From contig OY760937.1 in NCBI GenBank assembly GCA_963664225.1, positions 4,960,001-5,024,000 of the forward strand: a DNA stretch of 64,000 nucleotides, read 5' to 3'. Both the position numbers and the translations under genes were made by a program. This document shows, one piece after another, positions 2 through 21,825 of the stretch. Under the pieces are notes generated by a model that made no database searches, had not been told where the DNA came from, and saw only the letters and a program-made list of their open reading frames with translations. This DNA is from Verrucomicrobiia bacterium. GTDB taxonomy: Bacteria; Verrucomicrobiota; Verrucomicrobiia; Limisphaerales; UBA1319. How positions within the stretch are numbered: the stretch's first letter is position 1; each line of letters opens with the position of its first letter.

Positions 2-3000
2 CTGCGGCTTGGACATCGGGTCAGTGGCGTGGTGATGGGGATTTACAATCCGCAGCGAAAAGAACGGCGCTGGATCAAGATCGACGCGGTGCCGGTATCG
101 CGGCAGGCCAGGACGGCACCCATGGAAGTTTACTCGGTGTTTGAGGATATTACGGAACGCAGGAAGGTGGAGCAGGCTCTTCGGGAAAGCGAACAGCGGG
201 TGCTATCGGTACTCCAATCGGCCTCGATTGGCACTTTCGAGGTCGATCTTCAAACCGGTGAAGAGCGATGGAACTCCATCGAATACGGTCTATTGGGTTT
301 GAACCCGGACAAGGTTGCTGCGAAGCCTGAAAGCCTCTTTCGCCACGTTCATCCCGACGATATTGATTCGCTCAAATCCAGATGGGCGAAAGCATTGAAT
401 ACCGGGGAGTTGGATGTGGAGTTTCGAATATTGCACGCTGACGGCCGGGAACGCTGGCTGGCGGGAAAGGGAAGATTCGTTGTCAACAACGAAGGAAAAC
501 CGACTCACTTTCTGGGAATCAATTTTGATATTACCGGGCGCCGGCAGGTTGAAGAATTTCTGCGACGCAGCGAAGCGCTCTACCGCTCGATAGGCGAGAG
601 CATGGATTTTGGCACGTGGACCAGCGATCCGAATGGACGGAATACATACGCCAGCAACAGTTTTCTAGCGCTCACTGGACTTTCGCAGGAGCAGTTGTCT
701 GAATTGGACTGGAGCGGTATCGTGGAGCCGGTGGATGCGGAACGCGCCAAAGCGCAATGGGAGGAATGTGTCCGGACTGGCGGTAATTGGGATTTCGAGT
801 ATCGGATTCACGGCGCTGACGATCAATGGCACTATATCCTCGCTCGTGGCACGCCGGTGAAGGACGAGCGGGGGCGCATTCTTTGCTGGGCGGGCATTAA
901 TCTCGATATCAGCCGGCTGATGCGTGCGGAGGAGGCATTGCGCCAGAGCGAGCAGCAATGGAAGGTCATGGCCAACGCCATGCCGCAACTTGCGTGGATC
1001 GCCCAGGCCGATGGTTACATGACCTGGTATAACCAGCGTTGGTACGATTACACAGGTACGACACCGGTGCAAATGGCAGGATGGGGTTGGGAGGGGGTGC
1101 ATCATCCCGCAGTGCTTCCGCAAGTGCTGGTTGAGTGGAAGAAATCGCTGGAAACCGGTCAATCCTTTGAGATGGAGTTTCCTCTGAAGGGTGCCGACGG
1201 CGTTTATCGTCCGTTTTTGACTCGGGCGTTCCCAATGAAGGATGACGCCGGGCATGTATTGCAGTGGCTGGGCACCAACACGGACATCACCGGACGAAAG
1301 CAGGCGGAAGGCAAACTGCGCGATTCCACGTTGCGATTGCAATCCGCCAACAACGCCCTAAAGGACTCCCGTCGCGCCGCGTTGAATCTGATGGATGACG
1401 CATTGCACGCGCGCCAGCAGGCCGAAAATCTCAACGTGGAACTGCGCCGCGAAGTTGACGAGCGCAAACGGACTGAAGAGAGACTGCACCGACTCAACCG
1501 CATACTAAACGCGTGCAGCCGCAGCGATCAGGCCATGATGCGCGTCCAGGCGGAATCGGAATACCTGGAGGAAGTCTGCCAGATCGTGGTGCAGGACTGC
1601 GGATATCCGATAGCCTGGATCGGTATTGCCGAGCAGGACGAGGCCAAAACCGTGCGGCCTGTGGCTTGGGCGGGCTTTGAGGACGGATATCTGGAAAAGT
1701 TGCGTATCACCTGGTCAGACTCGGAACGAGGGATGGGTCCAACCGGGACGGCGATTCGGACGGGAAAATTAAGTCTTTGCCGGAACATGCTCACCGATCC
1801 TCAATTCATGCCGTGGCGTGAGGAGGCCTACAAGCGCGGATATGCCGCCTCCATCGCCCTGCCATTAAGGGCCGAAGGTGTGGTGCTTGGCGCTCTTACG
1901 ATTTATTCGCGGGATCTGAATCCGTTTACAGAAGAGGATGTCGGATTGCTGGGTAAATTGGCCGAAGACCTGGCCTACGGCATCACCGCGCTCCGTTTGC
2001 GAGAGGCTCATCGAAAAGCCGAGCTGGCGCTCCGGGAAAGCGAGGCGCGCTACCGGAACCTATTCAGCTCAATGAGTGAGGGTTTTGTCCTGCACGAGCT
2101 AATCTGCGACGCCGAGGGCCGCCCTTGCGACTGTCGGATTCTGGAAGTCAATCCGGCGTATGAGCGCCTGACGGGCCTGCGCGGCGCCGATCTGATAGGC
2201 AGGACCATGCTTGAAGTCATGCCCGAGACCGAGCCGATGTGGATCGAACGCTTTGGCCGTGTGGCGCTGACAGGCGAACCGGATCACTTCGATGGGGAGA
2301 ATCGGGTTTTGGGACGGTGGTATGAAGTCTATGTCTCGCGGACTGAGACGGGGCGGTTTGCCGTGGTGTTTTTGAATGTGACCGAGCGCAAAAAGGCCGA
2401 GGAAGCGTTGCGACGAAGCAATGGACGGATCAATCTGCTGGCCGAGACGGCGAGCGAATTATTAAAAAGCGATTCGCCGCTTACCATTATAAATTCGCTA
2501 TGCCAGAGGGTGCTCGCCTTTTTGGACTGCCAGGCATTTTTCAACTTCCTCGTCGATGAAAATAAAGGCCGACTGCACTTGAACGCGTGCGGCGGCATTT
2601 CCGAGGAGGATGCGCGCAAAATCGAATGGCTTGATTACGGCATGGCCGTATGCGGATGCGTGGCTCGCGACGGCTGCCGCATCGTGGTGGAGGATATTGC
2701 GGCTTCGCAGGATCCACGCGTGGACCTGGTGAAAGGTTTTGGGATGGCGGCTTACGCCTGCCATCCACTGATGGTTGGCAAGCGATTGCTGGGGACACTC
2801 TCCTTTGGCACGCGGACGCGCGCCCATTTCGAGGAGGAGGAATTGTCCCTGATGATGGCGGTGACTGACCAGGTGGCCATTGCGATAGAAAGCCAGCGGG
2901 CCGAGGAGGCGCTGAGACTTGCAGCGGAAGATCTGGCGCGTTCGAACCGGGACCTGGAGCAGTTCGCCTACGTGGCCTCGCACGATTTGCAGGAACCACT

Positions 3001-3619
3001 CCGGGCCGTGTCCGGTTACACTCAACTGCTCCAGAATCGCTACCCGGACCAACTGGACGAAAAGGGGCGGCAATATATTGCCGGGGCGGCGGATGGCGCC
3101 ATCCGGATGCAAACGCTCATCCACGATCTGTTGGCATTTTCTCGGGTGAGCACTCAGGGCAAGTCCTTTGAACCGACAGATCTCAATGTGGTCCTAACAA
3201 AGGCGCTTGAGAATCTTGCGGTGACCCTGCGAGAGGCCTCCCCGAAAGTTACTTCCGGCCTGTTGCCCACAGTCCGGGTGGATCCAACACAGATCGCTCA
3301 GTTGTTCCAGAACCTGATCGGCAATGCGATCAAGTTCAGGAACAATCGACCGTTGGAAATCGATATCAGCGCGCGCCGGGAGACGGCTCAATGGGTTCTG
3401 TCCGTGCGCGATAATGGGATTGGCATCGAGCCACAGTATTTTGAGCGCATTTTCCAGATTTTCCAGCGCTTGCACACCCGATTGGCCTACCCTGGCACAG
3501 GGATTGGCCTGGCGGTCTGCAAAAGGATTGTGGAACGCCACGGAGGCAAAATCTGGGTGGAGTCGCAGCCTGGCGCGGGATCCACTTTCCACTTTACGAT
3601 CAGCGACAATCCATCATGA
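2..3619 (+). CDS. Multi-PAS/GAF sensor histidine kinase (Cph1/Rcp1-partner type), 5'-truncated by the window edge
   Basis: Frame is open back to position 2. Several PAS/PAC repeats and two GAF domains. H-box DLEQFAYVASHDLQEPLR; HATPase motifs NLIGNAIKF, DNGIGI, GTGIGLA. Confidence 0.93.
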   Translation: MRLGHRVSGVVMGIYNPQRKERRWIKIDAVPVSRQARTAPMEVYSVFEDITERRKVEQALRESEQRVLSVLQSASIGTFEVDLQTGEERWNSIEYGLLGLNPDKVAAKPESLFRHVHPDDIDSLKSRWAKALNTGELDVEFRILHADGRERWLAGKGRFVVNNEGKPTHFLGINFDITGRRQVEEFLRRSEALYRSIGESMDFGTWTSDPNGRNTYASNSFLALTGLSQEQLSELDWSGIVEPVDAERAKAQWEECVRTGGNWDFEYRIHGADDQWHYILARGTPVKDERGRILCWAGINLDISRLMRAEEALRQSEQQWKVMANAMPQLAWIAQADGYMTWYNQRWYDYTGTTPVQMAGWGWEGVHHPAVLPQVLVEWKKSLETGQSFEMEFPLKGADGVYRPFLTRAFPMKDDAGHVLQWLGTNTDITGRKQAEGKLRDSTLRLQSANNALKDSRRAALNLMDDALHARQQAENLNVELRREVDERKRTEERLHRLNRILNACSRSDQAMMRVQAESEYLEEVCQIVVQDCGYPIAWIGIAEQDEAKTVRPVAWAGFEDGYLEKLRITWSDSERGMGPTGTAIRTGKLSLCRNMLTDPQFMPWREEAYKRGYAASIALPLRAEGVVLGALTIYSRDLNPFTEEDVGLLGKLAEDLAYGITALRLREAHRKAELALRESEARYRNLFSSMSEGFVLHELICDAEGRPCDCRILEVNPAYERLTGLRGADLIGRTMLEVMPETEPMWIERFGRVALTGEPDHFDGENRVLGRWYEVYVSRTETGRFAVVFLNVTERKKAEEALRRSNGRINLLAETASELLKSDSPLTIINSLCQRVLAFLDCQAFFNFLVDENKGRLHLNACGGISEEDARKIEWLDYGMAVCGCVARDGCRIVVEDIAASQDPRVDLVKGFGMAAYACHPLMVGKRLLGTLSFGTRTRAHFEEEELSLMMAVTDQVAIAIESQRAEEALRLAAEDLARSNRDLEQFAYVASHDLQEPLRAVSGYTQLLQNRYPDQLDEKGRQYIAGAADGAIRMQTLIHDLLAFSRVSTQGKSFEPTDLNVVLTKALENLAVTLREASPKVTSGLLPTVRVDPTQIAQLFQNLIGNAIKFRNNRPLEIDISARRETAQWVLSVRDNGIGIEPQYFERIFQIFQRLHTRLAYPGTGIGLAVCKRIVERHGGKIWVESQPGAGSTFHFTISDNPS

Positions 3620-3746
3620 TAAACATTTTAAGCATGAGCCACAGCAATATTAGGAGTCGGGCAATGGGGCAGGTTGCAGGAAGCAGCCGGTTGTCAGGCT
3701 TGCGCTTCCGATGCGTGTCTGGCCGAACGAATATCCACGCCTGGAA

Positions 3747-4199
3747 ATGATGACGACAATGAATCCTGACAAACCGATAGAAATTCTACTGGTGGATGAC
3801 AGCCCCAGCGATACGGATTTGACTGTCGAAGCCTTGCAGGAAGGCAAAATCCGCAACCATCTCAGCACGGTGGAGGACGGTGTCCGTGCGATGCAATTTC
3901 TCCGGCGCGAGGGGGAATACGCGCAGGCGCCCCGACCGGATTTGATTCTGCTGGACTTGAATCTGCCGCGCAAGGACGGGCGCGAAGTCCTGGCGGAAAT
4001 CAAGGCGGATCCGGATCTGAAGACCATACCGGTGGTGATAATGACCACTTCGCAGGCCGAAAAGGATGTGGACCAGGCCTATCAATTGAATGCGAATTGT
4101 TATGTCACCAAACCGCTGGACTTTTTGCAATTTGTGGCCCTGGTCAGAAGCATCGAGAATTTCTGGCTCACCATCGTCACGCTGCCACGGAGGGATTAG
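3747..4199 (+). CDS. Single-domain response regulator, Rcp1-like
   Basis: EILLVDD...[15 protein letters not shown]...ANCYVTKP...IENFWL. Start is uncertain (3711/3747/3759). Confidence 0.92.
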
Positions 4200-4327
4200 G
4201 TGGATGAGCGAGGTTAAACGGATCATTCGAGTGTGGACGATTTCATGATTCCGGATTGATCGTCCGAGTCGAGAGTCGGAGTCCCGGTTACGGCTTATAA
4301 CCTGGTTCCAGAAATGGCAAAATAAGA

Positions 4328-6286
4328 ATGTCGGAATTTGAAAGCAAGAAACGGGCGGGTATGGTATATTTGCCTTATGATGGCCAACCCGTCATGAAAG
4401 CCGCGCCAATCAGAGTGCTGTTGGTGGAAGACAGCCCTTCAGACGCCCAATTGCTGCAGGACCACCTTGAGTCCACGGCGGAAAATCATTTTGGTTTCAC
4501 TCATTGCGAGAACTTGCGGGAAGCTTTGGAGCATCTGAACAAGGGGTTGTTCGATGTGTTGCTTCTGGATCTCTCCCTCCCTGATAGCTCCGGCAGAGAA
4601 ACGTTCCTTCAGGCGCGCGCGGCCGCTCCAATGGTTCCCATTATACTACTGACCGGTTTGGATGATGAGGCGCTCGGCATCGAGGCCGTTCGACACGACA
4701 TTCAGGACTATATCGTCAAGGGGCAGGCGGATGGCCGTCAAATCGCCCGGTCTATTCGTTATGCCATCGAAAGGAAGCGGGCGCAGGAGCAGTTGCGTCT
4801 GCAAGCGGCGGCATTGCAGTCCGCGGCCAATGCCATCCTGATTACAAACTATGAAGGAATCATCATGTGGGTGAATGCCGCCTTCACTCGTTTGACCGGC
4901 TATAATGTTCAGGAAATTGTGGGGCAGAATCCGCGCCTGCTCAAGTCCGGACTGCAGGATGCGGCGTTTTATCAAGGGCTCTGGGGTCCGATCCAGGCAG
5001 GTCAACCTTGGCATGGGGAATTGATCAACAAACGCAAGGATGGCACGCTGTATATCGACGAAACGACGATCACCCCATTGACCGATCCCCGCGGGAAGAT
5101 CACCCACTTTATCGCCGTCAAACAGGATGTAACCGACCGAAAACAGGCGGAAAACAGTCTTAGATTTCAGGCCCGGATGCTGGACACTGTGGGGCAGGCA
5201 GTTATTGCCACGGATCTGGATCGGCGTATTACTTATTGGAATGAGGCCGCCGCGCAACTTTTTGGCTGGTCCAAGGAAGAGGTGCTGGGAAAAGTGCTGG
5301 CGGAAGTGTTGCCTCCGCAGGCGAGCTGCGAGACGCTCAGTGAAATCACCGCCGCGTTAACCAGCGGTAATGGCTGGTCGGGGGAGTTCGCAGTCCGCAA
5401 TCGGGAAGGCGGGCTTGTGGAACTGCACACGACCAATACCCCGATGTGCGATGAGAAGGGCACTCTCATTGGTTACATAAGTATTGGATTGGATCTGACG
5501 GAGCGCAAACGGATGGAGGATGCCCTGCGCCGGGCGCATGACGAGTTGGAGGAAAGGGTCCGGGAGCGAACTTCCGAACTGGTGACGGCCAACGCCGCCC
5601 TGCAAAGAGAAATTGCCCAGCGTCATTCTCTCGAGGCGCAGCTTGTTGAGATTGCTGAAGCCGAGCAGCGCCGGATAGGCCGGGATCTGCACGACGGCCT
5701 GTGCCAGCAACTGGCTGGAATTGCCTACTTGTGCAGTGTCACCCAGGAGCGCCTGGCCCGGAATGCTCCCGCTGAAGCCGGGGCGATGGCTCAAATCACC
5801 CGGCTCATTCAGGAGTCGAATTCTCAGGCCCACGGTCTGACGCTCGGTCTCAATCCAGTCAACCTTGCTGCAGATGGATTGATGGTGGCGCTGCAGAACC
5901 TTGTGGCAAACCTCCACAAGCTTTATGCCATCCCCACGCACTTTGATTGCAGCGAGCCGGTCCTCCTTCGCGACCACACAGCGGCCACCCATCTTTACCG
6001 AATCGCGCAGGAAGCCCTGAGCAACGCCGCCAAGCATGCCAGGGCCACGCAAATTATCCTGCGGCTGACCTCCACGGCAGAACTGCTCTCTTTGGTGGTC
6101 AAAGACAACGGCGTGGGTATTATTTCTGCGCACACGCGCGGAACCGGCATGGGTTTGGAAACCATGCGGTTTCGGGCCCGTTCCATCGGGGCTACTTTGA
6201 GTATTGAGAACAATGCCAGACAAGGGACGGTGGTGAATTGCACGCTGCCCTTGAAAACCCTTTCTCGCAGCCAAACCAACGCATGA
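4328..6286 (+). CDS. Hybrid REC-PAS-PAS sensor histidine kinase (HisKA_3/NarX type)
   Basis: N-terminal receiver (VLLVED, LLDLSLPD), two PAS domains, EQRRIGRDLHDGLCQ H-box, RIAQEALSNAAKHA. Start may be 4394. Confidence 0.92.
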   Translation: MSEFESKKRAGMVYLPYDGQPVMKAAPIRVLLVEDSPSDAQLLQDHLESTAENHFGFTHCENLREALEHLNKGLFDVLLLDLSLPDSSGRETFLQARAAAPMVPIILLTGLDDEALGIEAVRHDIQDYIVKGQADGRQIARSIRYAIERKRAQEQLRLQAAALQSAANAILITNYEGIIMWVNAAFTRLTGYNVQEIVGQNPRLLKSGLQDAAFYQGLWGPIQAGQPWHGELINKRKDGTLYIDETTITPLTDPRGKITHFIAVKQDVTDRKQAENSLRFQARMLDTVGQAVIATDLDRRITYWNEAAAQLFGWSKEEVLGKVLAEVLPPQASCETLSEITAALTSGNGWSGEFAVRNREGGLVELHTTNTPMCDEKGTLIGYISIGLDLTERKRMEDALRRAHDELEERVRERTSELVTANAALQREIAQRHSLEAQLVEIAEAEQRRIGRDLHDGLCQQLAGIAYLCSVTQERLARNAPAEAGAMAQITRLIQESNSQAHGLTLGLNPVNLAADGLMVALQNLVANLHKLYAIPTHFDCSEPVLLRDHTAATHLYRIAQEALSNAAKHARATQIILRLTSTAELLSLVVKDNGVGIISAHTRGTGMGLETMRFRARSIGATLSIENNARQGTVVNCTLPLKTLSRSQTNA

Positions 6287-6996
6287 ACAGCTCGCTTTCA
6301 ACCTCTGCGGAGCACGGAACCGCTTCACATTCAGCAGCCCGCAAGGCCCGTCTTTTGCTTGTGGACGATCATCCCATCTTCCTGCAGGGCGTGACCGCAG
6401 TGCTCGAACCGCAACCTGATTTGAGTGTGTGCGGTCATGCGACCAACACCCGGGACGCCTTGCGCTCCGTTGAGAGCTTAAAACCGGACCTGATGCTGCT
6501 CGATGTGTCCCTGGATGGCTCGCACGGCATTGACTTGCTCAAGGATCTCAAAGTCTATCATCCCGACCTGCCGGTGATTGTGCTTTCAATGCACGATGAA
6601 ACCCTTTACGCGGAGAGTGCTTTGAGGGCCGGCGCCAAAGGTTATGTCATGAAAAGGCAACCCTCCCAGCATCTTCTGGAGGCGATTCGGAAGGTTTTGC
6701 GGGGCGGCATGGCCTTCAGCGAGGAGATTACCGCCCGGATGTTGAACGGTGCTTCCGGCAGAGCCGATGGACGAAATCCGCTCCCTACGGATCGATTGAG
6801 CGATCGCGAACGGCAGATATTGGAATTGATCGGGCAGGGCCTGTCCACACGTAAGATCTCGGAAGCCCTGCATATCAGCATCAAGACGGTGCAAGCCCAT
6901 CGCGAGAACCTGAAGGTCAAACTGGAAATGCTGGATGGTCTTGCGTTGAATCGTTTCGCGGTGCATTGGGTGGAGACCGACCGCCGTTCAATTTAG
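6283..6996 (+). CDS. NarL/LuxR-family DNA-binding response regulator
   Basis: LLVDDHP receiver and LSDRERQIL...ISIKTVQAHR HTH. ATGA overlap with the upstream kinase stop. Confidence 0.93.
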   Translation: MNSSLSTSAEHGTASHSAARKARLLLVDDHPIFLQGVTAVLEPQPDLSVCGHATNTRDALRSVESLKPDLMLLDVSLDGSHGIDLLKDLKVYHPDLPVIVLSMHDETLYAESALRAGAKGYVMKRQPSQHLLEAIRKVLRGGMAFSEEITARMLNGASGRADGRNPLPTDRLSDRERQILELIGQGLSTRKISEALHISIKTVQAHRENLKVKLEMLDGLALNRFAVHWVETDRRSI

Positions 6997-7265
6997 AACA
7001 CGGTTCGTCGTGTTTGCGCCGCAGAGAACGAGGGGGATTCATTGAATACTCGAGGGGTATCTTTATCTCATACGTCCTGGGTCGGAAAATGCGATCGATT
7101 GACTGTCAGAAAAAATTAGTTTTCTAAAATTTGACGGAATCAGGAGCAAGAAGAACATTGTGCTGGCTGGCGAGTGAAGTAATCAAGGAACGGCAATCCG
7201 CCCGGGCGGGCGGAGGTTCTAAACGAAAAGGCGCGTTCGTGATGTGATTGCAGGGCCAGTTAATA

Positions 7266-8429
7266 ATGTCGAATGTCATGGATCAACACCGGTGCATGTC
7301 CTTTGGGGTGTGCCGAATTCGTGAAACAATACTTGGATATTTATTCGTCCACACACTGGATGCAGTGTTGATTTGCACGGTGGAAGGCACGATTGTGGAT
7401 GCCAATCCTTCGGCCTGCGCGATGCTGGGGTGCGAACGGGACAAGATTCTCCGGATGCAGCCATGGGAAATCATTGCGGAAGCACCGAGAAATGAACTGC
7501 TGAGTCAGTGGCGGCAGCTCGATTACGGAGTGTCGGCTGAAAAAGAGCGGATTTATAGACGTAAGTCCGGGAATTTTGCGGTGGCCGAAAGGGTGATCAG
7601 GCTGTCTCCGCCGCAGCAGGAATTGATCCTCCTCTTTTGCAAAGAAAAACCGCCAGGCAAGGGGAATGGGATCAATCTGGTAAACTCAGCGCGCAATGAT
7701 TGCGGTGGACAGGAAGTCACCCTTCCATCCCGTTCCCCGGCGTTTGAAGTCATTCCAACAGATCCAAGATTGGGCAATCCGCAAGTCTCTCGCCACGAGG
7801 CGGCATCGGCAGCCAAAATACGCATTCTAATATCAGATCAACAAGCCCTTGTTCGTGAGGGTTTGGCGTCCATGATTGCGGGACAGGAGGACATGGTTGT
7901 TGTGGCAGAGGCCAGGAACGGTGATGAAACCGTGGAGTTGTGGAAACGTCATGCCCCTGACGTGACCCTGGTTGATTTGCACCTGCCGCAGTTGGACGGA
8001 ATGGGAGTGATCAAGGAAATTCACGCATATAATGCCTCCGCGCGAATCATTGTCCTGACGGCATTCGATGGTGCGGGCACGATTTATCGGACAATTCGAG
8101 CCGGCGCCAAGGCCTATATTCTCAAAGACACCTGCCGTGAAGAACTCATGTCCTGCATTCGTAACGTGCATAAGGGGGAAACCTTTGTTCCCCAAGCCAT
8201 CGCGGCCAAGTTGGCGGAGTACATGACCGCCGAGGAATTGACCAATAGAGAGGCTGAGGTGTTGTGTTCGATCGCTGCTGGCACGAGCAACAAGGAGATT
8301 GCGAGGAAGCTTTACATCAGCCAGACCACGGTCAAGACTCATGTGAGAAATATCTTCGGAAAGCTCCATGTGAAGAGCCGCACCGAAGCAGCCGCAGTGG
8401 CCACCCGCAGTGGCCTCCTCCAATCCTGA
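7266..8429 (+). CDS. PAS-domain-fused NarL/LuxR-family response regulator
   Basis: N-terminal PAS-like segment (DAVLICTVEGTIVDANPSACAMLG), receiver (VTLVDLHLP), LuxR HTH (LTNREAEVL...SQTTVKTHVRNIFGKL). Start uncertain. Confidence 0.85.
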   Translation: MSNVMDQHRCMSFGVCRIRETILGYLFVHTLDAVLICTVEGTIVDANPSACAMLGCERDKILRMQPWEIIAEAPRNELLSQWRQLDYGVSAEKERIYRRKSGNFAVAERVIRLSPPQQELILLFCKEKPPGKGNGINLVNSARNDCGGQEVTLPSRSPAFEVIPTDPRLGNPQVSRHEAASAAKIRILISDQQALVREGLASMIAGQEDMVVVAEARNGDETVELWKRHAPDVTLVDLHLPQLDGMGVIKEIHAYNASARIIVLTAFDGAGTIYRTIRAGAKAYILKDTCREELMSCIRNVHKGETFVPQAIAAKLAEYMTAEELTNREAEVLCSIAAGTSNKEIARKLYISQTTVKTHVRNIFGKLHVKSRTEAAAVATRSGLLQS

Positions 8430-8749: not shown

Positions 8750-10363
8750 ATGAAAGTAAAAATTCGTTCCGTCATTATTGGCTTGGCGCTCCTTGTTGGT
8801 GTTCAAAACACTTTTGCCCTAAGCTCGTTTAGAAGCCGCGTTCCCAATGGCAATCTCAATAGCTGCGACACCTGCCATGATTTGGCGGCTGGTCCGCCGG
8901 CATTGAATCCTTTTGGCACCGCCTTTCTTGGCGCAGGCACCTCATGGACTCCAGCCCTGGCTACCGTGGATTCAGATGGTGATGGTTTTACCAACGGTCA
9001 GGAATTGGGAGATCCGGCTGGAACATGGACTCCCGGAAGCCCCAATCCAACAGGAAACATTACTAATCCAGGAGATCCGACTTCGCACCCAACGGCCACC
9101 GCCCCTGCGATCACGACGGAACCGGCCAGCCAGACGGTGACTGTTGGAGCCAATGTGACCTTTACGGTTGCGGCTACCGGCACGGCACCGCTGGCGTATC
9201 AATGGCAAAAGAACACGGTGAATATTACCGGTGCCACCAATGACACACTTGCATTGAATGCGGTCACCGCCGGTGACGCGGGCAGTTACGTGGTGGTGGT
9301 GAGCAACGGGGCGGGATCGGTGCCCAGCACGGCCGCGACGCTGACGGTTAATCCCGCGGCGGTCGCCCCTGCGATCACGACGGAACCGGCCAGCCAGACG
9401 GTGACTGTTGGAGCCAATGTGACCTTTACGGTTGCGGCTACCGGCACGGCACCGCTGGCGTATCAATGGCAAAAGAACACGGTGAATATTACCGGTGCCA
9501 CCAATGACACACTTGCATTGAATGCGGTCACCGCCGGTGACGCGGGCAGTTACGTGGTGGTGGTGAGCAACGCGGCGGGATCGGTGCCCAGCACGGCCGC
9601 GACGCTGACGGTTAATCCCGCGGCGGTCGCCCCTGCGATCACGACGGAACCGGCCAGCCAGACGGTGACTGTTGGAGCCAATGTGACCTTTACGGTTGCG
9701 GCTACCGGCACGGCACCGCTGACGTATCAATGGCAAAAGAACACGGTGAATATTACCGGTGCCACCAATGACACACTTACATTGAATGCGGTCACCGCCG
9801 GTGACGCGGGCAGTTACGTGGTGGTGGTGAGCAACGCGGCGGGATCGGTGCCCAGCACGGCCGCGACGCTGACGGTTAATCCCGCGGCGGTCGCCCCTGC
9901 GATCACGACGGAACCGGCCAGCCAGACGGTGACTGTTGGAGCCAATGTGACCTTTACGGTTGCGGCTACCGGCACGGCACCGCTGACGTATCAATGGCAA
10001 AAGAACACGGTGAATATTACCGGTGCCACCAATGACACACTTACATTGAATGCGGTCACCGCCGGTGACGCGGGCAGTTACGTGGTGGTGGTGAGCAACG
10101 CGGTGGGATCGGTGCCCAGCACGGCCGCGACATTGACGATCAACGCAACCCCCATCACTCTTTTGGTCTCCCGGACCGATGTGAATACCACACTGATTTC
10201 CTGGGACGTTTCGTTGGCTGGGTTCGTGCTCCAAGAAAACTCAGATCTTAATACCACCAATTGGCTGGCTGTAACAAACACCGTTGTGGTGGCAAATGGC
10301 ACGAATCAGGTAAGCGTTACCCCCTTGATCAACAACCGGTTCTATCGGTTGTTTCATCCGTGA
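8750..10363 (+). CDS. Secreted protein: temptin-like domain with CxxCH heme motif, 4 Ig-like repeats and a C-terminal FYRL module
   Basis: Sec signal ending TFA. Domain VPNG..SCDTCH..LNPFG..WT..DSDGDGFTNGQELGDP. Four 88-aa Ig repeats (PAITTEP..LxYQWQK..DAGSY). Tail NSDLNTTNW...RFYRL. Confidence 0.85.
   Translation: MKVKIRSVIIGLALLVGVQNTFALSSFRSRVPNGNLNSCDTCHDLAAGPPALNPFGTAFLGAGTSWTPALATVDSDGDGFTNGQELGDPAGTWTPGSPNPTGNITNPGDPTSHPTATAPAITTEPASQTVTVGANVTFTVAATGTAPLAYQWQKNTVNITGATNDTLALNAVTAGDAGSYVVVVSNGAGSVPSTAATLTVNPAAVAPAITTEPASQTVTVGANVTFTVAATGTAPLAYQWQKNTVNITGATNDTLALNAVTAGDAGSYVVVVSNAAGSVPSTAATLTVNPAAVAPAITTEPASQTVTVGANVTFTVAATGTAPLTYQWQKNTVNITGATNDTLTLNAVTAGDAGSYVVVVSNAAGSVPSTAATLTVNPAAVAPAITTEPASQTVTVGANVTFTVAATGTAPLTYQWQKNTVNITGATNDTLTLNAVTAGDAGSYVVVVSNAVGSVPSTAATLTINATPITLLVSRTDVNTTLISWDVSLAGFVLQENSDLNTTNWLAVTNTVVVANGTNQVSVTPLINNRFYRLFHP
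9101..10140 (+). repeat. Intragenic tandem repeat, 4 x 264 bp, near-identical (Ig domains)
   Basis: Units start at 9101, 9365, 9629 and 9893, with only a few substitutions between them. Confidence 0.97.
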
Positions 10364-10932
10364 TGATGACGGTCCTGCTCGTAACACACAGAATTGAAGA
10401 CTGTTATCGGACTCAAATTCAGAATTGAAGAAGTAACTGGTACTTAAAACGGACGAAATGGGGCGCCCTTAAAAAAGGCGCTCCCGGTTGTTCATGCATT
10501 TAAAGTTGGCTCGCCAACTTTATTCGATCATGTCGGCTTGGTTCAATTGCGAGCAAACCAGTCAGACACCCACTGACAAAATAGAGTCATACTTTAATCA
10601 ATGCGTTCCAAAAATAAACGAAAGCTGAGACGAGGAGATACGTTGATCTCGTTCAGCCCATGTTGAAGGTTTGACGCAGAAAGCGAAGAATGCCTCACCG
10701 CCCTCCATTCGAGGAGGGCCGAGCATCCTTAAGTTTGGAAACAAACCGGTTGATTTCCCGTGAGAAATACAATAAGAAAACATAAACAACAAAAACAGAA
10801 AAACTAATGCGGCTGCAACCTTTAAAATTGTAACAGCATTTCAATACATAGACTGCCCATAAATGCCGGCGATCAATTACACAAGTGAAAGCTGGTGGTT
10901 TAAGAAACAATCAAAAAGATCGGAAAAGATAT

Positions 10933-13065
10933 ATGAAACTTAAATATCTATTATCGTTATTAGGTCTGTCATTCCTTCTGGCTGTGCCAGATGCCTCCGC
11001 CCTGAGCTCCTATCAGAGCCGTGTGCCCAATGGCACAGTGTCTAGTTGCGACACATGCCATAACCTGGTTTCAGGCCCCCCAAACCTGAATCCATTTGGG
11101 AGCGCCTTTCGTGACGCAGGCCTCCGGTGGACTCCCGCACTTGCCGTTTTGGATTCAGATGGCGACGGTTTCTCCAATGGCCGGGAACTAGGCGACCCGG
11201 CTGGTTCATGGACTGCTGGAACACCTAATCCCACGGGCACCATTACCAATCCTGGAGATCCCGCATCCCATCCAGCGACCGCAACGGCGCCTGCGATCAC
11301 AACGCAACCCGTCAGTCAAACGGTCACGGCTGGAGCCAATGTGACCTTTACGGTTGCGGCCACCGGCACGGCGCCCCTGACGTATCAATGGCAGAAGGAC
11401 ACGGTGAATATCACCGGGGCCACGAGCGCCTCATTGATGTTAACCGGTGTTATTGCCGGTGACGCGGGCAGTTATCGAGCCGTTGTCAGCAATGCGGCCG
11501 GAACAGCCACCAGCGATGCGGCCACCCTCACGGTGAATCCCGCGCCTGCCGCTCCTTCGATCACTATGCAACCTACAAGTCAGGCAGTCATGGCTGGAGC
11601 CGATGTGACCTTTACGGTTGCGGCTACCGGCACGGCGCCCCTGACGTATCAATGGCAGAAGAACACGGTGAATATCACCGGGGCTACGAGTGCCTCATTG
11701 ATGTTAACCAGTGTTACTGCCGGTGATGCGGGCAGTTATCGAGCCGTTGTCAGCAACACGGCCGGAACAGCCACCAGCGATGCGGCCACCCTCACCGTGA
11801 ATCCCGCGCCGGTCGCCCCTGCGATCACGACACAGCCCGCCAGCCAGACTGTAATGGTTGGAGCAAACGTTACCCTGAGCGTTGTCGCCACAGGAACAGC
11901 GCCTTTGAGTTATCAATGGCAGAAAGACACGGTCAACATTCCCGCAGCGACCAATGACACGCTGGTGTTAAACAGCGTGCTCGTCCTTGATGCGGGCAGT
12001 TATCGAGTCATTGTCACCAACATTGTCGGCTCCGCCACCAGTGACGAGGCAACGATTACGGTCAACACTGCGCCTGTGGCACCGGAGATCACGACGCAAC
12101 CCGCCAGTCAGGACGTGCCGGCTGGAGGCAATGCAACCTTCACGGTTGTTGCGACTGGAACAGCACCATTGGCCTACCAATGGCAGAAGGACACAGCCAA
12201 TATTACCGGGGCGACCAGCGCCACGCTCACATTGACTGGCGTTACCGCTGGCGATGCGGGCAGTTACCGCGTGGTGGTCACCAACAGTGTTGGCTCCGCC
12301 ACCAGTGAGGCGGCGATCCTTACAGTCAACACCGGGCCCGTGGCTCCCGTCATCACAACTCAACCGACCAGCCAGACCGTACTGGTTGGAGCCGACGTCT
12401 CGTTCAAGGTGGTTGCGACAGGCACCGCGCCGTTGAGTTATCAATGGCAGAAGGACACAGTCAACATTGCCGGGGCGACCGGCGATACTCTCGCGTTAAC
12501 AGGAGTTGTCTCCGGAGATGCGGGCAGTTATCGGGTCGTTGTCAGCAATGCAGCCGGCTCGGCCACGAGCGACGCGGCGACACTCACGGTCAATACGCAG
12601 CAGGAGAATGTTCCTCCTGCGGTACAGATCATTCAACCCAGGGAGGGCAGAAAATATTTCAGTGGCAGAGAAATACGTCTGCTCGCCCTCGCCAGCGATT
12701 CCGACGGGACTGTGACAGAAGTTGAGTTCTTCGATGGCGAGACAAGTCTGGGTGTTGCAAAATCATTAGGACGGCGCCACGAGGGTGAAGACGGGGAGAA
12801 TCATCCTGCTGCCACGTCAGACGACGATTCCAGCGAGAGAACTCAGTCGAGTCTCAATGGCGTCAGCGCCCTTTATTCGATCAAATGGGACAATGCATCG
12901 GTTGGCGATCATACGATTACAGCCAAAGCGACTGACAACTTGGGCGCAAGCACTGTTTCCGCCCCCGTAAAAATCACCGTAACTTCCAAGAAACCGCGTG
13001 GTTCAGACCACCGGGAAAGCGATACCGAAGTGACAGAATCCAGATTGGAAGAAATAAGCCGTTAG
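10933..13065 (+). CDS. Secreted paralog: temptin-like CxxCH domain, 5 Ig-like repeats and a C-terminal bacterial Ig (Big_7-like) domain
   Basis: Signal MKLKYLL...ASA. Domain YQSRVPNG..SCDTCH..LNPFGSAF..DSDGDGFSNGRELGDP. Five Ig repeats. NVPPAVQI..ASDSDGTVTEVEFF..TAKATDNLGA. Confidence 0.85.
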   Translation: MKLKYLLSLLGLSFLLAVPDASALSSYQSRVPNGTVSSCDTCHNLVSGPPNLNPFGSAFRDAGLRWTPALAVLDSDGDGFSNGRELGDPAGSWTAGTPNPTGTITNPGDPASHPATATAPAITTQPVSQTVTAGANVTFTVAATGTAPLTYQWQKDTVNITGATSASLMLTGVIAGDAGSYRAVVSNAAGTATSDAATLTVNPAPAAPSITMQPTSQAVMAGADVTFTVAATGTAPLTYQWQKNTVNITGATSASLMLTSVTAGDAGSYRAVVSNTAGTATSDAATLTVNPAPVAPAITTQPASQTVMVGANVTLSVVATGTAPLSYQWQKDTVNIPAATNDTLVLNSVLVLDAGSYRVIVTNIVGSATSDEATITVNTAPVAPEITTQPASQDVPAGGNATFTVVATGTAPLAYQWQKDTANITGATSATLTLTGVTAGDAGSYRVVVTNSVGSATSEAAILTVNTGPVAPVITTQPTSQTVLVGADVSFKVVATGTAPLSYQWQKDTVNIAGATGDTLALTGVVSGDAGSYRVVVSNAAGSATSDAATLTVNTQQENVPPAVQIIQPREGRKYFSGREIRLLALASDSDGTVTEVEFFDGETSLGVAKSLGRRHEGEDGENHPAATSDDDSSERTQSSLNGVSALYSIKWDNASVGDHTITAKATDNLGASTVSAPVKITVTSKKPRGSDHRESDTEVTESRLEEISR
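11287..12595 (+). repeat. Intragenic tandem repeat, 5 x 264 bp, diverged (Ig domains)
   Basis: Units start at about 11287, 11551, 11815, 12079 and 12343; units 1 and 2 are the most similar. Confidence 0.9.
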
Positions 13066-13701: not shown

Positions 13702-13776
<75 letters not shown>

Positions 13777-14290: not shown

Positions 14291-14455
14291 CAGGAAAATT
14301 TGGTGATGGGGCGATTTAGCCTGTTGTTGGATGGAAACTGACGGGCTGCAAGATGTTAACGAGGGGTGGCCTTTGCCGTTTTTTCGCGGCGGAATGATTT
14401 CACGATTGACCATGGAACGCCATTTGCTCCATTAATGGCGCGAATCACTAGACCC

Positions 14456-17400
14456 ATGACCTTTCTTAAAAAATCGTTCCGCACCGAGTTTGCGGGGTTG
14501 GAAGTTTGTACCCGCTGGATGCTCATTTTGCTTTTGGTGGGCGTTGCATCTTCAAATGGAGCGGTCATTATCAACGAGATACATTACAATCCCGATGTTA
14601 AAACCGAGCCAGCGAAGTTTGTCGAGATATATAATACGGACACCAACGCGGTCGATCTATCGGCATGGTCCTTTACCAGCGGCATCAATTATACATTTCC
14701 GCAGGGTGCCACGCTGGGTGGCCTGCAATTTGCTCTCGTTGGATCAAACCCGGCTTTTTTGAAAACCAAGTATGGCGCGCAGGCGTATGGGCCGTTCACG
14801 GGCACGCTTTCGGCGCAGGGGGATAAGCTCGTTCTGAGGGATGCGGCGGGGACTATTCAGAACCAGGTCGCCTTCCAACTCGGTTTTCCGTGGCCTACGG
14901 TGGGTGATCCGCCGGGGTATTCGATCGAGCTGATTAATCCCAGCCTGGATAACACATTGGGCGGCAGTTGGAGGGCGTCGCACCGGGAGGCGGATACCAA
15001 TTCGACGGCGCAACCGCAGACGTTCATCACGGACCATTCGGAGTGGCGCTATCATAAGGGCACGAATGAGGCGTCGATTCCAACGGATGCGTGGCGCATG
15101 CCGGGTTTCGACGATGCAAGCTGGCCTGCGGGAACGACACCGATTGGTTATGATCCCATCGAGGTGATGGGGACGCCTTTGGACGACATGCGGGGCAATT
15201 ATGTGACGATTTTTGCCCGGAAAACCTTTGTAATTTCGAACCCGGCAGAGATCGGCGCCTTGCTGGCGGACGTCGAATATGATGACGGATTCAACCTGTG
15301 GATCAACGGTCGTCATGTTCAGCGGCAGGCTCTGGATCGGGATGAGATGGCCTACAATGAATTAGCCAATACCACCCGTGAAAACGCGGGTTTTGACACG
15401 TTCGCGCTGCCCATACCGCTGGATTATTTGCAGGCGGGCACAAACGTTATCGCCATCCAGGTGCATAACATATTGCTGTCCGCGAGTTCCGATGCCTTTT
15501 TCGATCTGCGATTGCGCACACAACCGGTGTCCGTGGTGGCAGTGAGCGGTCCGACGCCCGGCCGGATCAACAGCGTCTATTCGACCAACGCGCCCCCGCA
15601 GATTCGACAGGTCGATCATACGCCCAGGCAGCCGATGTCCAATCAAGAGGTGAAAATTACCGCCAAAATCACCGATCCGGATGGTGTTCGCAGCGTGAAA
15701 CTGGAGTATCAATTGGTTGATCCCGGTCAATATATTGCGATTAGCGACGTGGCATACCAGACCAACTGGGTGGAGCTGGCGATGCTCGATGACGGTGCGG
15801 CTGGGGATGCGGCGGCTGGAGACGATGTGTTTACCGCGGTGATGCCCGCGAGCCTGCAGACCAATCGCCGGTTGGTGCGTTATCGGATCACGGCTGTGGA
15901 TAACACAGGGCTATCCGTTACCGTGCCTTATGGGGACGATGCGCAGCCGAATTTCGCCTATTTTGTGTATGATGGCGTTCCCGCCTGGAGCGGCGCAGCC
16001 CGACCGGGCACCACTGTGGTTCAGCAGTTTGGGACCAACATCATGCGCAGCCTGCCCACCTATCATCTGATTTCGAAACAGACTGCGGTTGAGGGATCCA
16101 CATGGCGGGATCAGTATCAAGGAAACCTTTACCCGTATCAAGGAACGGTGGTCATCGACGGCGAGGTGCTGGATCATATCCGCTTCAGGGCCCGCGGAGG
16201 CGTGTGGCGGTATGCGATGGGCAAAAACATGTGGAAGTTCGATCTCAACCGGGGTCATGATTTCCTGCCGGTCGATAATTACGGTCAGGGGTATAACGCG
16301 CGCTGGAAGAAGATCAATCTCGGGTCTTGCATCCAACAGGGCGACTACGGCCATCGGGGCGAACAGGGGATGTTCGAGTCGATCGGTTTCAAATTGTTCA
16401 ACCTGGCGGGGATCGAAGCGCCGCGAACGCATTTTGTGCAGTTTCGGGTGATCGACAAGGCATTGGAAACGAATCCGGCGAACCAATATGACGGGGATTT
16501 CTGGGGGCTTTACATGGCGGTGGAGCAGGAGGACGGACGGTTCCTTGATGAGCACGGATTGCCGGATGGAAACTTCTACAAGATGGATGGGGGCTTCGGC
16601 ACGTTGAACAACCAGGGTCCCACAGCTGTGAGCGATCGCTCGGACCTTTCGAAATTCATGTCCACCTATCAAGGCTCGCCCTCAGAGTCATGGTGGCGGA
16701 CGAATTTCGATTTGGGCCGATATTACGACTACAGGACCATTGTTGAGGCGATTCATCATTACGATATCGATGAGGGCGCCGGGAAAAACTACATGTATTA
16801 TCTGAATCCGGTGACTGGATTGTGGTCGGAACATCCGTGGGATCTGGACCTCACATGGGCCGATAACATGTATGGGGGCGGGGGATCGCCTTTTAAGAAC
16901 CGGGTGCTTCCGCAGCCGGCATTTGCATTGGAATACCGCAATCGGATTCGGGAAATTCGCGATTTGCTGTTTAACTCCGAGCAGACGGGCCTCTTGATTG
17001 ATGAATACGCGGCTATTATCCACGACCCGAAAGGCGGTTTGTCCTTCACGGATGCGGACCGGGCGCAATGGGATTACAACCCAATCATGGCATCGGGCTA
17101 TGTCAATTCGAGCAAATCGGGTCAGGGGCGCTATTATCAATGGCCCTTTGAGCCCACTGTGACGAAGAGCTTCGTCGGCACGATCCAGCTCATGAAGAAC
17201 TATGTGAAAACACGTGGGGCCTTTCTGGATGCGCTGGCGGCGGATATGTACACCCCCAACACTCCCGTGGTCACGTATGCGGGGCCCACGAATTACCCGA
17301 TCAATCAGCTTGTTTTTCGCAGCAGCGCTTTCGAGAGGACCAACGGGACGTTTGCCGGCATGAAGTGGCGTCTGGCCGAGGTAAGCCCGGCGAATGCGCC

Positions 17401-19336
17401 GATCTTCGATCCGGCGCATCCTCGCAAATACGAAATAACAGCCACATGGGAGAGCGGGGAATTGCCGGATTTTGCAGAGACCATCACAGTTCCCGCATCG
17501 TCCGTAAAGATTGGCCATACCTATCGCGTTCGTGTGCGAATGAAAGACTTTTCGGGGCGTTGGAGTCATTGGTCCGCGCCGGTTGAATTTGTGGCGGGCG
17601 AGCGGGATCAAGTGCAGGTATTGCGGGAAAATCTGGGGGTCACGGAGTTGATGTATGATCCGCAAGGCGGTTCGGAATATGAGTATATCGAACTGCACAA
17701 TGCCAATGCAACCGAGACGCTGGATCTGGCCGGGGTCACCTTTACGCAAGGGATCAATTACACCTTTGACGCGAATACGCTCCTCGGACCCAACGAGTAT
17801 CTGCTGCTGACAAAAGCGTTCTCAACCAATAATTACGCCGATTTCCGCGCGCATTATCATTTGGATGCAACGGTCCGCATTGTCGGGCCCTATTCGGGCA
17901 GTTTCGATAACAATGGCGAAACAGTGACGATCAAGAGCGGTGCAGCGGGAACGGATATTATTTCCTTTACCTATGGCGATGGCTCGGGTTGGCCGGCGAG
18001 CGCGGATGGCGCGGGGCATTCCCTGGTTCCGCTGAATTATACGTTCACAGGGAGAGCTTACGATTACGCCAGGGGTTGGCGGGCGAGCGCTTTTACCGGG
18101 GGTTCTCCTGGAAAAGAAGATCCCACGCCGCAAGTGTCCGTGGTGCTCAATGAAATCGCGGCCTATACGGTGTATTCGGATCCGTTAAAGCCCGAATACG
18201 TTTCCAACGACTGGATAGAACTTTTTAATACGACCGATGCGCCGGTTCTGATGGAGCATTGGTTTTTAAGCGACGATCCAACCGTATTGACCAAGTGGGC
18301 CATTCCCACACAGACCCTTGCTGGGCATGAACGCGTGGTCTTTGACGAGGTGAGCGGATTCCACAATCCCATCACGAACGGTTTTGGACTGAGCAGTTTA
18401 GGAGAATCCCTATACCTGTCCTGCCTGCCCGGCGATGGAACGGACCGCGTTATGGATGCCATCCAATACAAAGCTCAGGAGACAGCGATATCCTGGGGAC
18501 GGTATCCGGACGGAGGCGAATACTGGATGGGATTGGAGCCGACGCGGGGGGCGTCCAACGGGCCGCCGGTGGGGCATTTGATCATCAGCGAAATCATGTA
18601 TCACCCGGCTGCCTTTGATACGAACGACAACACGCGGGACGAATACATCGAGATATTCAATCCCACGACAAACACGGTTTCCCTGTCCGATACCAATGGC
18701 GCCTGGCGCATCGATGGCAGTGTTAAATACGCATTTCCAACCAATACAGTGCTGTTGCCCGGTCAATGCCTTTTGGTGGCGGCAGTGGCGCAAACAAACA
18801 CTGTGCAATGGGACGCGTTTATTCAAAAATACAATCTGACCAACGATGCCTTGGTTATTGTGAGGCCGTTCGATGGCAAACTTCCCAACGATGCCGGACG
18901 GGTCGCATTGGAAAAACCGATGGCAACGGGCATTGTTGGAAACTCGACTGCATGGATCGTTCAGGATGAGGTCATTTATTCGGATTCATTGCCATGGTAT
19001 CCTGCTGCGGACGGCGTAGGGTCATCGCTGGAAAGAACAGGTTTTCAGATCATTGGCAACGATCCAATGCAGTGGACCGCCGCAGATCCGACTCCGGGAT
19101 TTGTGCCAGTGGAAAGGGCGATCACCTTGAGCATGCCTGTTGTTCTTGGGGAGGGAAAGTTCAGCATTCAAGTCCAGTGCCCGACATTTGGAACGATGGT
19201 CGTCGATTCCTCGACCGACCTGCGCCAGTGGCAGCCAGTCTATACCAACACGGCGCACACCGGGAGCTTTGAGTTTGGCGACACCAATGTGCTGGCGGGC
19301 ACAAACCAATTCTACCGTGTCCGCAAGGTGCAATAG
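14456..19336 (+). CDS. Secreted CotH-kinase-family protein with lamin-tail domains
   Basis: Repeated LTD starts (VIINEIHYNP, VTELMYDP, VVLNEI, IISEIMYHP). CotH motifs FRARGG, KNYMYY..WDLDLTW. C-terminal STDLRQW...FYRV module. ORF-track start is 14366. Confidence 0.88.
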   Translation: MTFLKKSFRTEFAGLEVCTRWMLILLLVGVASSNGAVIINEIHYNPDVKTEPAKFVEIYNTDTNAVDLSAWSFTSGINYTFPQGATLGGLQFALVGSNPAFLKTKYGAQAYGPFTGTLSAQGDKLVLRDAAGTIQNQVAFQLGFPWPTVGDPPGYSIELINPSLDNTLGGSWRASHREADTNSTAQPQTFITDHSEWRYHKGTNEASIPTDAWRMPGFDDASWPAGTTPIGYDPIEVMGTPLDDMRGNYVTIFARKTFVISNPAEIGALLADVEYDDGFNLWINGRHVQRQALDRDEMAYNELANTTRENAGFDTFALPIPLDYLQAGTNVIAIQVHNILLSASSDAFFDLRLRTQPVSVVAVSGPTPGRINSVYSTNAPPQIRQVDHTPRQPMSNQEVKITAKITDPDGVRSVKLEYQLVDPGQYIAISDVAYQTNWVELAMLDDGAAGDAAAGDDVFTAVMPASLQTNRRLVRYRITAVDNTGLSVTVPYGDDAQPNFAYFVYDGVPAWSGAARPGTTVVQQFGTNIMRSLPTYHLISKQTAVEGSTWRDQYQGNLYPYQGTVVIDGEVLDHIRFRARGGVWRYAMGKNMWKFDLNRGHDFLPVDNYGQGYNARWKKINLGSCIQQGDYGHRGEQGMFESIGFKLFNLAGIEAPRTHFVQFRVIDKALETNPANQYDGDFWGLYMAVEQEDGRFLDEHGLPDGNFYKMDGGFGTLNNQGPTAVSDRSDLSKFMSTYQGSPSESWWRTNFDLGRYYDYRTIVEAIHHYDIDEGAGKNYMYYLNPVTGLWSEHPWDLDLTWADNMYGGGGSPFKNRVLPQPAFALEYRNRIREIRDLLFNSEQTGLLIDEYAAIIHDPKGGLSFTDADRAQWDYNPIMASGYVNSSKSGQGRYYQWPFEPTVTKSFVGTIQLMKNYVKTRGAFLDALAADMYTPNTPVVTYAGPTNYPINQLVFRSSAFERTNGTFAGMKWRLAEVSPANAPIFDPAHPRKYEITATWESGELPDFAETITVPASSVKIGHTYRVRVRMKDFSGRWSHWSAPVEFVAGERDQVQVLRENLGVTELMYDPQGGSEYEYIELHNANATETLDLAGVTFTQGINYTFDANTLLGPNEYLLLTKAFSTNNYADFRAHYHLDATVRIVGPYSGSFDNNGETVTIKSGAAGTDIISFTYGDGSGWPASADGAGHSLVPLNYTFTGRAYDYARGWRASAFTGGSPGKEDPTPQVSVVLNEIAAYTVYSDPLKPEYVSNDWIELFNTTDAPVLMEHWFLSDDPTVLTKWAIPTQTLAGHERVVFDEVSGFHNPITNGFGLSSLGESLYLSCLPGDGTDRVMDAIQYKAQETAISWGRYPDGGEYWMGLEPTRGASNGPPVGHLIISEIMYHPAAFDTNDNTRDEYIEIFNPTTNTVSLSDTNGAWRIDGSVKYAFPTNTVLLPGQCLLVAAVAQTNTVQWDAFIQKYNLTNDALVIVRPFDGKLPNDAGRVALEKPMATGIVGNSTAWIVQDEVIYSDSLPWYPAADGVGSSLERTGFQIIGNDPMQWTAADPTPGFVPVERAITLSMPVVLGEGKFSIQVQCPTFGTMVVDSSTDLRQWQPVYTNTAHTGSFEFGDTNVLAGTNQFYRVRKVQ

Positions 19337-21747: not shown

Positions 21748-21825
21748 ACCATGAACATCTTTAGGGATTTTATGACCTTAAAAATTCACTTGCCTACCCG
21801 GTCACTCAAATTTGTGGGATATCAA

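Follow-up and report, generated by a model that had tools for sequence, protein, structure and literature searches.

A bacterial form of the Temptin_C domain with a conserved CxxCH motif, a likely heme-binding head on exported immunoglobulin-repeat proteins of a Verrucomicrobiia bacterium

The stretch of DNA analyzed here (64,000 nucleotides, positions 4,960,001 to 5,024,000 of contig OY760937.1 in GenBank assembly GCA_963664225.1, from a Verrucomicrobiia bacterium; hereafter, the window) carries two neighboring open reading frames (ORFs), ORF A (positions 8750..10363 of the window) and ORF B (10933..13065), which encode exported paralogs sharing a small N-terminal domain, here called the head. 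Both genes and all features described within them lie on the plus strand, with about 570 bp of non-coding DNA between the two. ORF A (537 amino acids, aa) consists of a signal peptide, a head of the Temptin_C type, four immunoglobulin (Ig) repeats of the I-set family, and an unnamed C-terminal module, whereas ORF B (710 aa, counted from the ATG at 10933) has a signal peptide, a Temptin_C head, five I-set Ig repeats, a Big_7 domain, and a charged tail. An alternative GTG start at 10885 would extend ORF B to 726 aa; the corresponding protein library entry (P0002) is the 710-aa form. The two proteins are 69% identical across 474 aa. Signal sequences with n, h, and c regions were recognized by eye in both translations, ending TFA/LSS in ORF A (residues 1 to 23; 8750..8818) and ASA/LSS in ORF B.

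The head, about 95 aa long in both proteins, follows directly after the signal peptide (8819..9109 in ORF A; 11002..11295 in ORF B). Read from the DNA, its CxxCH motif is TGC GAC ACC TGC CAT at 8864..8878 in ORF A and TGC GAC ACA TGC CAT at 11047..11061 in ORF B, and the numbering C39-x-x-C42-H43 is the same in both proteins when ORF B is counted from its ATG. Downstream of the head, Pfam recognizes four Ig_3/I-set stretches in ORF A (9100..10138) and five in ORF B (11290..12596), with I-set (PF07679) scores above the cutoff at 142 and 170.7 bits, respectively. Tandem Repeats Finder resolved both regions into arrays of 264-bp period, with 3.9 copies at 99% matches in ORF A and 5.0 copies at 76% matches in ORF B. 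Because the ORF A repeats match one another so closely, the array suggests very recent amplification or concerted evolution of this spacer, and the length of the stalk may differ among strains. An earlier reading of the window, made from the sequence alone (the sequence-only reading), had described two exported paralogs with CxxCH motifs at these positions, a head of about 95 aa, and four or five Ig repeats, a description that was correct in each detail.

We then placed the head in a known family. The Pfam profile Temptin_C (PF24784; gathering cutoff, 27 bits) matched ORF A with an E value of 4.4e-19 (69.2 bits) and ORF B with an E value of 1.3e-18 (67.7 bits), and the match spanned profile positions 2 or 3 to 97 of 98, that is, 95 of the 98 positions. 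Searched alone, the two heads scored 72.6 and 70.8 bits. The kinship with temptin that the sequence-only reading had proposed, and for which it had suggested a profile comparison, is thereby borne out at 69 and 68 bits against a cutoff of 27. When the 97-aa head was searched with phmmer against 1.84 billion representative proteins, it matched 2,780 representative clusters at an E value of ≤0.001 and 731 at an E value of ≤1e-10; Temptin_C was present in all of the best 150 of the 2,780 matches. Named matches included oomycete proteins carrying the UniRef name "Temptin Cys/Cys disulfide domain-containing protein," a clam (mollusc) protein from Tegillarca (P0282) found directly with an E value of 1e-6, and a green-alga protein. 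The order of motifs (PNG ... H ... NxFG ... W ... DSDGDGxTNGxELGDP ... W ... PG) is common to the heads, the Pfam family, and Aplysia temptin, a protein with a role in a pheromone complex. In contrast to that small, free protein, the heads of ORF A and ORF B are parts of multidomain proteins (537 and 710 aa). Judged by profile and motif order, the heads of ORF A and ORF B are a bacterial form of the Temptin_C domain.

The bacterial form differs from the eukaryotic one at a small set of positions that change together. Among 269 full-length instances, 247 were of the CxxCH type and 22 lacked the motif and were eukaryote-like. At column 18, all 247 CxxCH-type copies have Cys and all 22 others have Gly, so that a bacterial CxxCH stands against a eukaryotic x-x-G-H, whereas the motif His at column 19 is retained in both classes (247/247 and 22/22; 269/269 overall). 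Conversely, columns 47 and 67 are Cys in all 22 eukaryote-like copies but Ala (224/247) and Gly (241/247) in the bacterial class. ORF A and ORF B have Ala and Gly there, and so fall outside a strict definition of temptin by the Aplysia-type Cys pair. The proposal that the temptin His lines up with the His of CxxCH, and that the later temptin Cys pair is missing from the bacterial form, was therefore accurate. This covariation is the pattern expected if a covalent heme braces the bacterial fold and a disulfide braces the eukaryotic one. To our knowledge, the eukaryotic secretory pathway has no machinery for c-type heme attachment. Column 84 also separates the classes: it is mostly Asn in bacteria (Asn 160, His 25, and Leu 21 of 247), whereas eukaryote-like copies have a second His there, within an S-H-P-G motif, in 18 of 22 instances. 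Together with the invariant His19, this second His could form a two-His metal or heme b site in the eukaryotic proteins, as far as the alignment indicates.

Retention of CxxCH among bacterial homologs, a survey that the sequence-only reading had called for, was high in every set that we assembled. The motif was present in 144 of the best 150 phmmer matches, the six without it looking eukaryotic, and in 135 of those 144 it lay inside the first 62 residues, directly after the signal peptide. It was invariant across an 82-row alignment, from which two proteins without CxxCH (P0021 and P0076) had been removed beforehand. A hidden Markov model (HMM) built from this alignment detected 315 domain instances in 293 proteins; with 13 N-terminally truncated instances set aside, CxxCH was found in 268 of 302 motif-covering instances, and the 34 without it were eukaryote-type or fragmentary. 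In genomes of the same order as the host, CxxCH stood just behind the signal peptide at 18 of 19 matched loci, the exception being the sole match below the cutoff. In genomes of named species (80 loci), which were searched with six peptide patterns, two of them containing CxxCH itself, the motif was kept in 89 of 90 motif-covering instances, and the exception (L095) looks decayed. These genomes belong to the Verrucomicrobiota, Bacteroidota/Ignavibacteriota (including cultured Melioribacter and Stygiobacter), Calditrichota, Myxococcota, Desulfobulbaceae, Latescibacterota, Gemmatimonadota, and others. In all three paralogs of the host genome (the third is described below), CxxCH lies 35 residues ahead of a DxDxDG motif. 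As far as comparison of sequences can tell, the CxxCH of the heads is more than a chance occurrence.

The DxDxDG motif opens a 12-residue loop, DSDGDGF(T/S)NG(Q/R)E, of canonical EF-hand type, read from the DNA as DSDGDGFTNGQE in ORF A (8969..9004) and DSDGDGFSNGRE in ORF B (11152..11187). A calcium-binding loop had been claimed for the head, and its sequence follows the EF-hand-type pattern. In the class alignment, the columns of loop positions D1, D3, D5, G6, N9, G, and E12 are near-invariant. The loop resembles those of bacterial thrombospondin type 3 and EF-hand proteins in its DxDxDG...N..E pattern, and EF-hand models match the relative P0004; the TSP3_bac profile (PF18884), however, scored only 19.6 bits in ORF A (E value, 8e-4) and 19.3 bits in ORF B, below its cutoff of 25. 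The head further differs from these families in having a single loop within a larger conserved domain.

The host genome (5.78 Mb in a single contig; 96% complete) was searched for cytochrome c maturation genes. It has a CcsA-family gene (PF01578, 88 bits) and, some 1.3 kb away in the same orientation, a ResB match (PF05140, 45 bits); a second PF01578 gene lies elsewhere, and no CcmE was found by profile search of this genome. By these profile matches, the maturation machinery of the host is System II (ResB and CcsA), which answers the check on maturation genes that had been suggested. PF01578 was also present in 49 of 50 other domain-carrying genomes, for which 50 of the 80 loci were sampled.

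Existing annotation and fused domains point in the same direction. The only curated model that treats the CxxCH/calcium-loop unit as heme binding is NCBIfam NF041762, "GEGP motif-containing diheme protein," and its name implies that curators already regard a related unit as a heme binder. Positions of about 47 to 132 of this model align with the part of the head from CxxCH to the calcium loop, and 70 of the best 150 relatives match it at an E value of ≤1e-4. P0004, a protein of seven tandem CxxCH/calcium-loop units, passes at 434.6 bits against a cutoff of 300; no member was found among 25 mid-length relatives, and the members are tandem-repeat proteins. ORF A and ORF B differ in having one CxxCH each instead of two, lack the remainder of the 359-position model, and are not members. 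Across the best 150 matches, partner domains included I-set Ig (24), Big_7 (20), a type IX secretion system (T9SS) sorting domain (20), CHRD (4), and MYXO-CTERM (3), along with PKD, Calx-beta, He_PIG, and cadherin-like domains. Redox-linked fusions were also found. P0020, with a Temptin_C head and five Ig domains in the layout of ORF B, continues into a cytochrome c7/c3 module that contains nine more CxxCH motifs; P0225 is fused to a plastocyanin/azurin domain; single matches to halocyanin and amicyanin models occur among the 150 relatives; and P0036 has a part resembling pyrroloquinoline quinone (PQQ) dehydrogenases (E value of 1.6e-22, below the family cutoff). In eukaryotes, fusion partners of the domain include cytochrome b561 and DOMON, and one report describes the temptin region of lophotrochozoan dopamine beta-hydroxylase (DBH)-like monooxygenases as standing in place of DOMON (PMC2762978). 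As a side observation, one relative (P0062) carries an EgtB/FGE-like part at its C terminus, and two FGE-sulfatase-like paralogs are encoded farther downstream in the window, which is probably coincidence.

Taken together, these results make the head, a bacterial Temptin_C domain on Ig spacers, a probable monoheme, calcium-binding module. The claim for heme, which we consider likely, draws on the retention of the motif, the covariation between the two classes, the fusions, and the maturation genes of the host. We infer that heme is attached, that calcium is bound, that electrons pass through the head, and where the mature proteins reside, as follows. ORF A, ORF B, and the third paralog would be exported by Sec as modular proteins. 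In the periplasm, ResB/CcsA would link one heme by covalent bonds to C39 and C42, H43 would be the proximal ligand of its iron, and the adjacent 12-residue EF-hand-type loop would bind Ca2+. Calcium and heme together would hold the small, loop-rich fold in shape, whereas the eukaryotic fold would be braced by its disulfide. The four or five I-set Ig domains would act as a rigid spacer that separates the head from the C-terminal end. The head itself would be a one-electron redox module, trading electrons with extracytoplasmic partners or substrates, a role that we prefer mainly because of the redox-linked fusions. The head would then probably be an unrecognized kind of small cytochrome. Taken as a whole, from covalent heme c and calcium loop through Ig spacer to one-electron redox module, this account falls slightly on the favorable side of even.

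The head can be compared with small c-type cytochrome domains (class I, and the c7/c3 units of multiheme cytochromes). Like these proteins, the head is exported, carries a single CxxCH near the N terminus of a small loop-rich domain, occurs in a System II host, and in P0020 is joined to a c7/c3 module. Of the features by which a c-type cytochrome is commonly recognized, we found a conserved CxxCH, an export signal (by eye), and a host maturation system, but neither a conserved distal axial ligand (Met or His) nor a match to a known cytochrome profile or fold; the head also differs from these cytochromes in its embedded EF-hand-type calcium loop. Modeled with AlphaFold2 from the 82-row alignment, the head of ORF A gave a confident prediction (predicted local distance difference test [pLDDT] score of 94.3; predicted template modeling [pTM] score of 0.85) that consists mostly of loops with five short helices. 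A feature search of the ESM Atlas with PF24784 proteins left out returned scores of 0.81 to 0.86, among them that of a cytochrome c7 cluster (0.81); none reached 0.9, and we treat this as a lead only.

Several results weigh against the proposed redox module. No Pfam cytochrome family matched the head at an E value of ≤1, Foldseek returned no row for the head model against the PDB at an E value of ≤10, and VIA-align found none of 48,161 chains at a Z score of ≥2. The best PDB sequence match by profile, a 34-residue stretch around the CxxCH of cytochrome c-554 (8ydm_C), reached an E value of only 0.021 and is a hint at most. Beyond the motif His, no His or Met is conserved, and in 73 of the 247 bacterial copies match columns 1 to 92 contain neither residue apart from it; this is uncommon for a cytochrome that transfers electrons. 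NF041762 scored only 32.3 and 33.1 bits for ORF A and ORF B against its cutoff of 300. PF01578 was present in 60 of 61 relatives of the same order whether or not they carry the domain, and the co-occurrence of maturation genes therefore has little power as a test because nearly all relatives own PF01578. Every homolog set was retrieved with a CxxCH-type query, so that eukaryote-type copies are under-sampled in all of the counts given above. Finally, no cytochrome or redox gene adjoins ORF A or ORF B, and no neighboring gene recurs across 10 Verrucomicrobiota loci.

The lack of a conserved sixth ligand means that the iron may be five-coordinate or ligated differently among subfamilies. If the heme is covalent but its iron is five-coordinate or weakly ligated, the head might instead resemble cytochrome c' in its function, as a small-ligand binder, a sensor, or a peroxidase-like catalyst borne on the stalk's end, and not be an electron carrier. 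The residue counts suit this view: neither column 84 nor column 91 (Lys 65, His 40, and Phe 39 of 247) offers a constant ligand, and 73 of the 247 copies lack any other His or Met. ORF A and ORF B also have no catalytic or redox partner domain, and PAS/GAF kinases and LuxR regulators are encoded upstream. On the other hand, the sixth ligand could vary by subfamily, ORF A and ORF B both having His at column 91 (..SHP..), or could be the mature N terminus; no signaling output domain was fused to the head among the 150 proteins scanned; and fusions to cytochrome c7, cupredoxin, PQQ-dehydrogenase-like, cytochrome b561, and DOMON parts suit electron transfer better. We regard a ligand-binding head as unlikely. 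Another reading holds that there is no heme, that the Cys, Cys, and His form a disulfide or a copper or zinc site, and that the head is a calcium-dependent adhesion or docking module of the thrombospondin type 3 or dockerin kind on an Ig stalk. The weak TSP3_bac match of the loop (E value, 8e-4; 19.6 bits) and the EF-hand matches of P0004 would fit such a module, as would the partner domains, most of which resemble those of adhesins (Ig, Big_7, PKD, cadherin-like, Calx-beta, and He_PIG); copper is suggested by copper-linked partners, namely, a PF11617 MopE-type motif, a cupredoxin, and a SCO1/CusF gene beside one homolog (L023). The eukaryotic forms, moreover, work without CxxC, and no known cytochrome fold or family matches the head. 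Against these points stands the exact C-x-x-C-H spacing in 247 of 269 full-length copies, with exceptions that are all of the eukaryotic type. A classical zinc site would need more ligands than two Cys and one His, and the related unit bears the name of a diheme protein in NCBIfam. Cytochrome c maturation systems recognize exported, accessible CxxCH motifs as substrates, which also counts against a heme-free head. We judge the heme-free module to be as improbable as the ligand binder, and the electron-transferring heme c head remains the reading that we favor.

The sequence-only reading had placed the heads on the cell surface, which is a possible location. Searches of ORF A and ORF B for a lipobox, PEP-CTERM, T9SS, or MYXO-CTERM signal all gave no match, and no recognized anchor was found in either protein, including the Big_7 Ig-like domain and acidic, charged tail that close ORF B (12589..13062). 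These results and the charged end of ORF B would fit proteins retained in the periplasm or secreted unattached into the medium, a possibility that we rate below surface display but well short of negligible. What speaks for sorting to the surface is a module of about 70 aa at the C terminus of ORF A (10145..10360, ending ...FYRLFHP). Modules closing in [FY]YR[LV] are common to ORF A (10145-10360 of the window), the third paralog (L003 2341-2580), and a giant protein encoded downstream (19094-19333 of the window), and a pattern search (Trp 25 to 60 residues before a terminal [FY][FYW]R[LVIA] plus 0 to 8 residues) found such a module at the end of about 91 long frames (≥150 aa) of the host genome. 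No Pfam family matched it at an E value of ≤10 beyond chance-level rows. Shared among so many long frames, the module resembles a common sorting signal and may be a lineage-specific sorting or anchoring domain. Homologs of other phyla have surface-sorting C termini (T9SS in 20 of 150 and MYXO-CTERM in 3 of 150); if the module anchors the C terminus, the head would be distal, as in those T9SS- and MYXO-CTERM-tagged proteins. The earlier picture of a monoheme, calcium-binding temptin fold on a stalk is supported in part: temptin membership, CxxCH, the EF-hand-type loop, and the Ig repeats stand.

The third paralog, encoded elsewhere in the host genome (G000:C1:2468654-2469811; L003 1426-2583), is 385 aa long and consists of a CxxCH head, one Ig domain, a cadherin-like/Big_9 domain, and a C-terminal module of the FYR type. 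Its neighbors are a protein with a prepilin-type N-terminal methylation motif upstream and a frame with a PEP-CTERM-like tail downstream. In the window, signaling genes lie upstream of ORF A (2-8429): a PAS/GAF histidine kinase, a hybrid REC-PAS-HisKA_3 kinase, a LuxR-type response regulator, and a PAS-REC-LuxR regulator. Downstream of ORF B are a tRNA-Met (13702-13776), the giant protein mentioned above (14366-19336; 1,656 aa, secreted, with three lamin-tail domains [LTDs], a CotH kinase-like domain, and the C-terminal module at its end), the two adjacent FGE-sulfatase-like paralogs (20572-23016), and tgt. The notion of a multigene system thus found no backing here: the neighbors are signaling genes, a tRNA, and the CotH/LTD protein, and none is a recurrent partner across the 10 Verrucomicrobiota loci. 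Redox- or metal-related neighbors did occur at 3 of these 10 loci. In L023 (1607-3774), which holds the closest named homolog, the head-bearing gene adjoins a SCO1/CusF fusion gene; in L053 (3-3846), it is divergent from genes for NiFe hydrogenase subunits; and in L096 (319-3938), its end overlaps that of a PSCyt1 cytochrome gene.

The distribution of the domain close to the host is patchy, with 15 of 61 genomes of the host's order carrying it (the host included), and a search of 300 further genomes, sampled evenly across the phylum and at least 90% complete, did not find it. Public records name its carriers after their other domains, such as "Ig-like domain repeat protein," "CHRD domain-containing protein," and "T9SS type A sorting domain-containing protein." The last of these is the only NCBI name of a 223-aa protein from the cultured isolate Stygiobacter electus, which joins a head to a T9SS tail and is encoded directly after MarR-like and YceI-like genes, both recognized by eye (L042 1892-3609). 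All of the literature that we found on Temptin_C or temptin-like domains concerns molluscs. We found no publication, among the titles listed, on bacterial members or on a link between temptin and heme, nor any on GEGP diheme proteins, Stygiobacter cytochromes, or CXXCH together with thrombospondin type 3, in searches whose coverage left out most subscription journals. The description of this system as undescribed therefore needs qualifying: the domain is already in Pfam, whose precomputed annotation includes these proteins, and a related unit is in NCBIfam as NF041762, and publications on its bacterial members did not come to light. Likewise, no stated role was found in the searchable literature for the conserved His of animal temptins and monooxygenase heads.

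If the head binds heme, it would represent a widespread family of monoheme c-type domains, spanning 2,780 representative clusters and many phyla, with a built-in calcium loop and a fold like none yet solved. Animal temptins, and the temptin heads found on copper monooxygenases, would also gain a biochemical lead that can be tested. A bolder and rather doubtful extension is that Temptin_C is an ancient extracytoplasmic heme or redox module. Under this proposal, bacteria would use CxxCH, next to a calcium loop, to bind heme c covalently within a fold that no solved cytochrome shares, whereas eukaryotes would have kept the axial His (22/22), gained a second His (column 84, 18/22) and a bracing disulfide, and would still bind heme b or metal. 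A redox function would then extend to mollusc temptin, to the temptin heads on DBH-like monooxygenases of lophotrochozoans, and to the temptin-DOMON-cytochrome b561 fusions of protists, and stalk-mounted heme heads would let bacteria of the Planctomycetes-Verrucomicrobia-Chlamydiae (PVC) type, such as this one, reach extracellular electron partners. For the host organism itself, heme binding would mean that it has three heme heads on Ig spacers of differing length.

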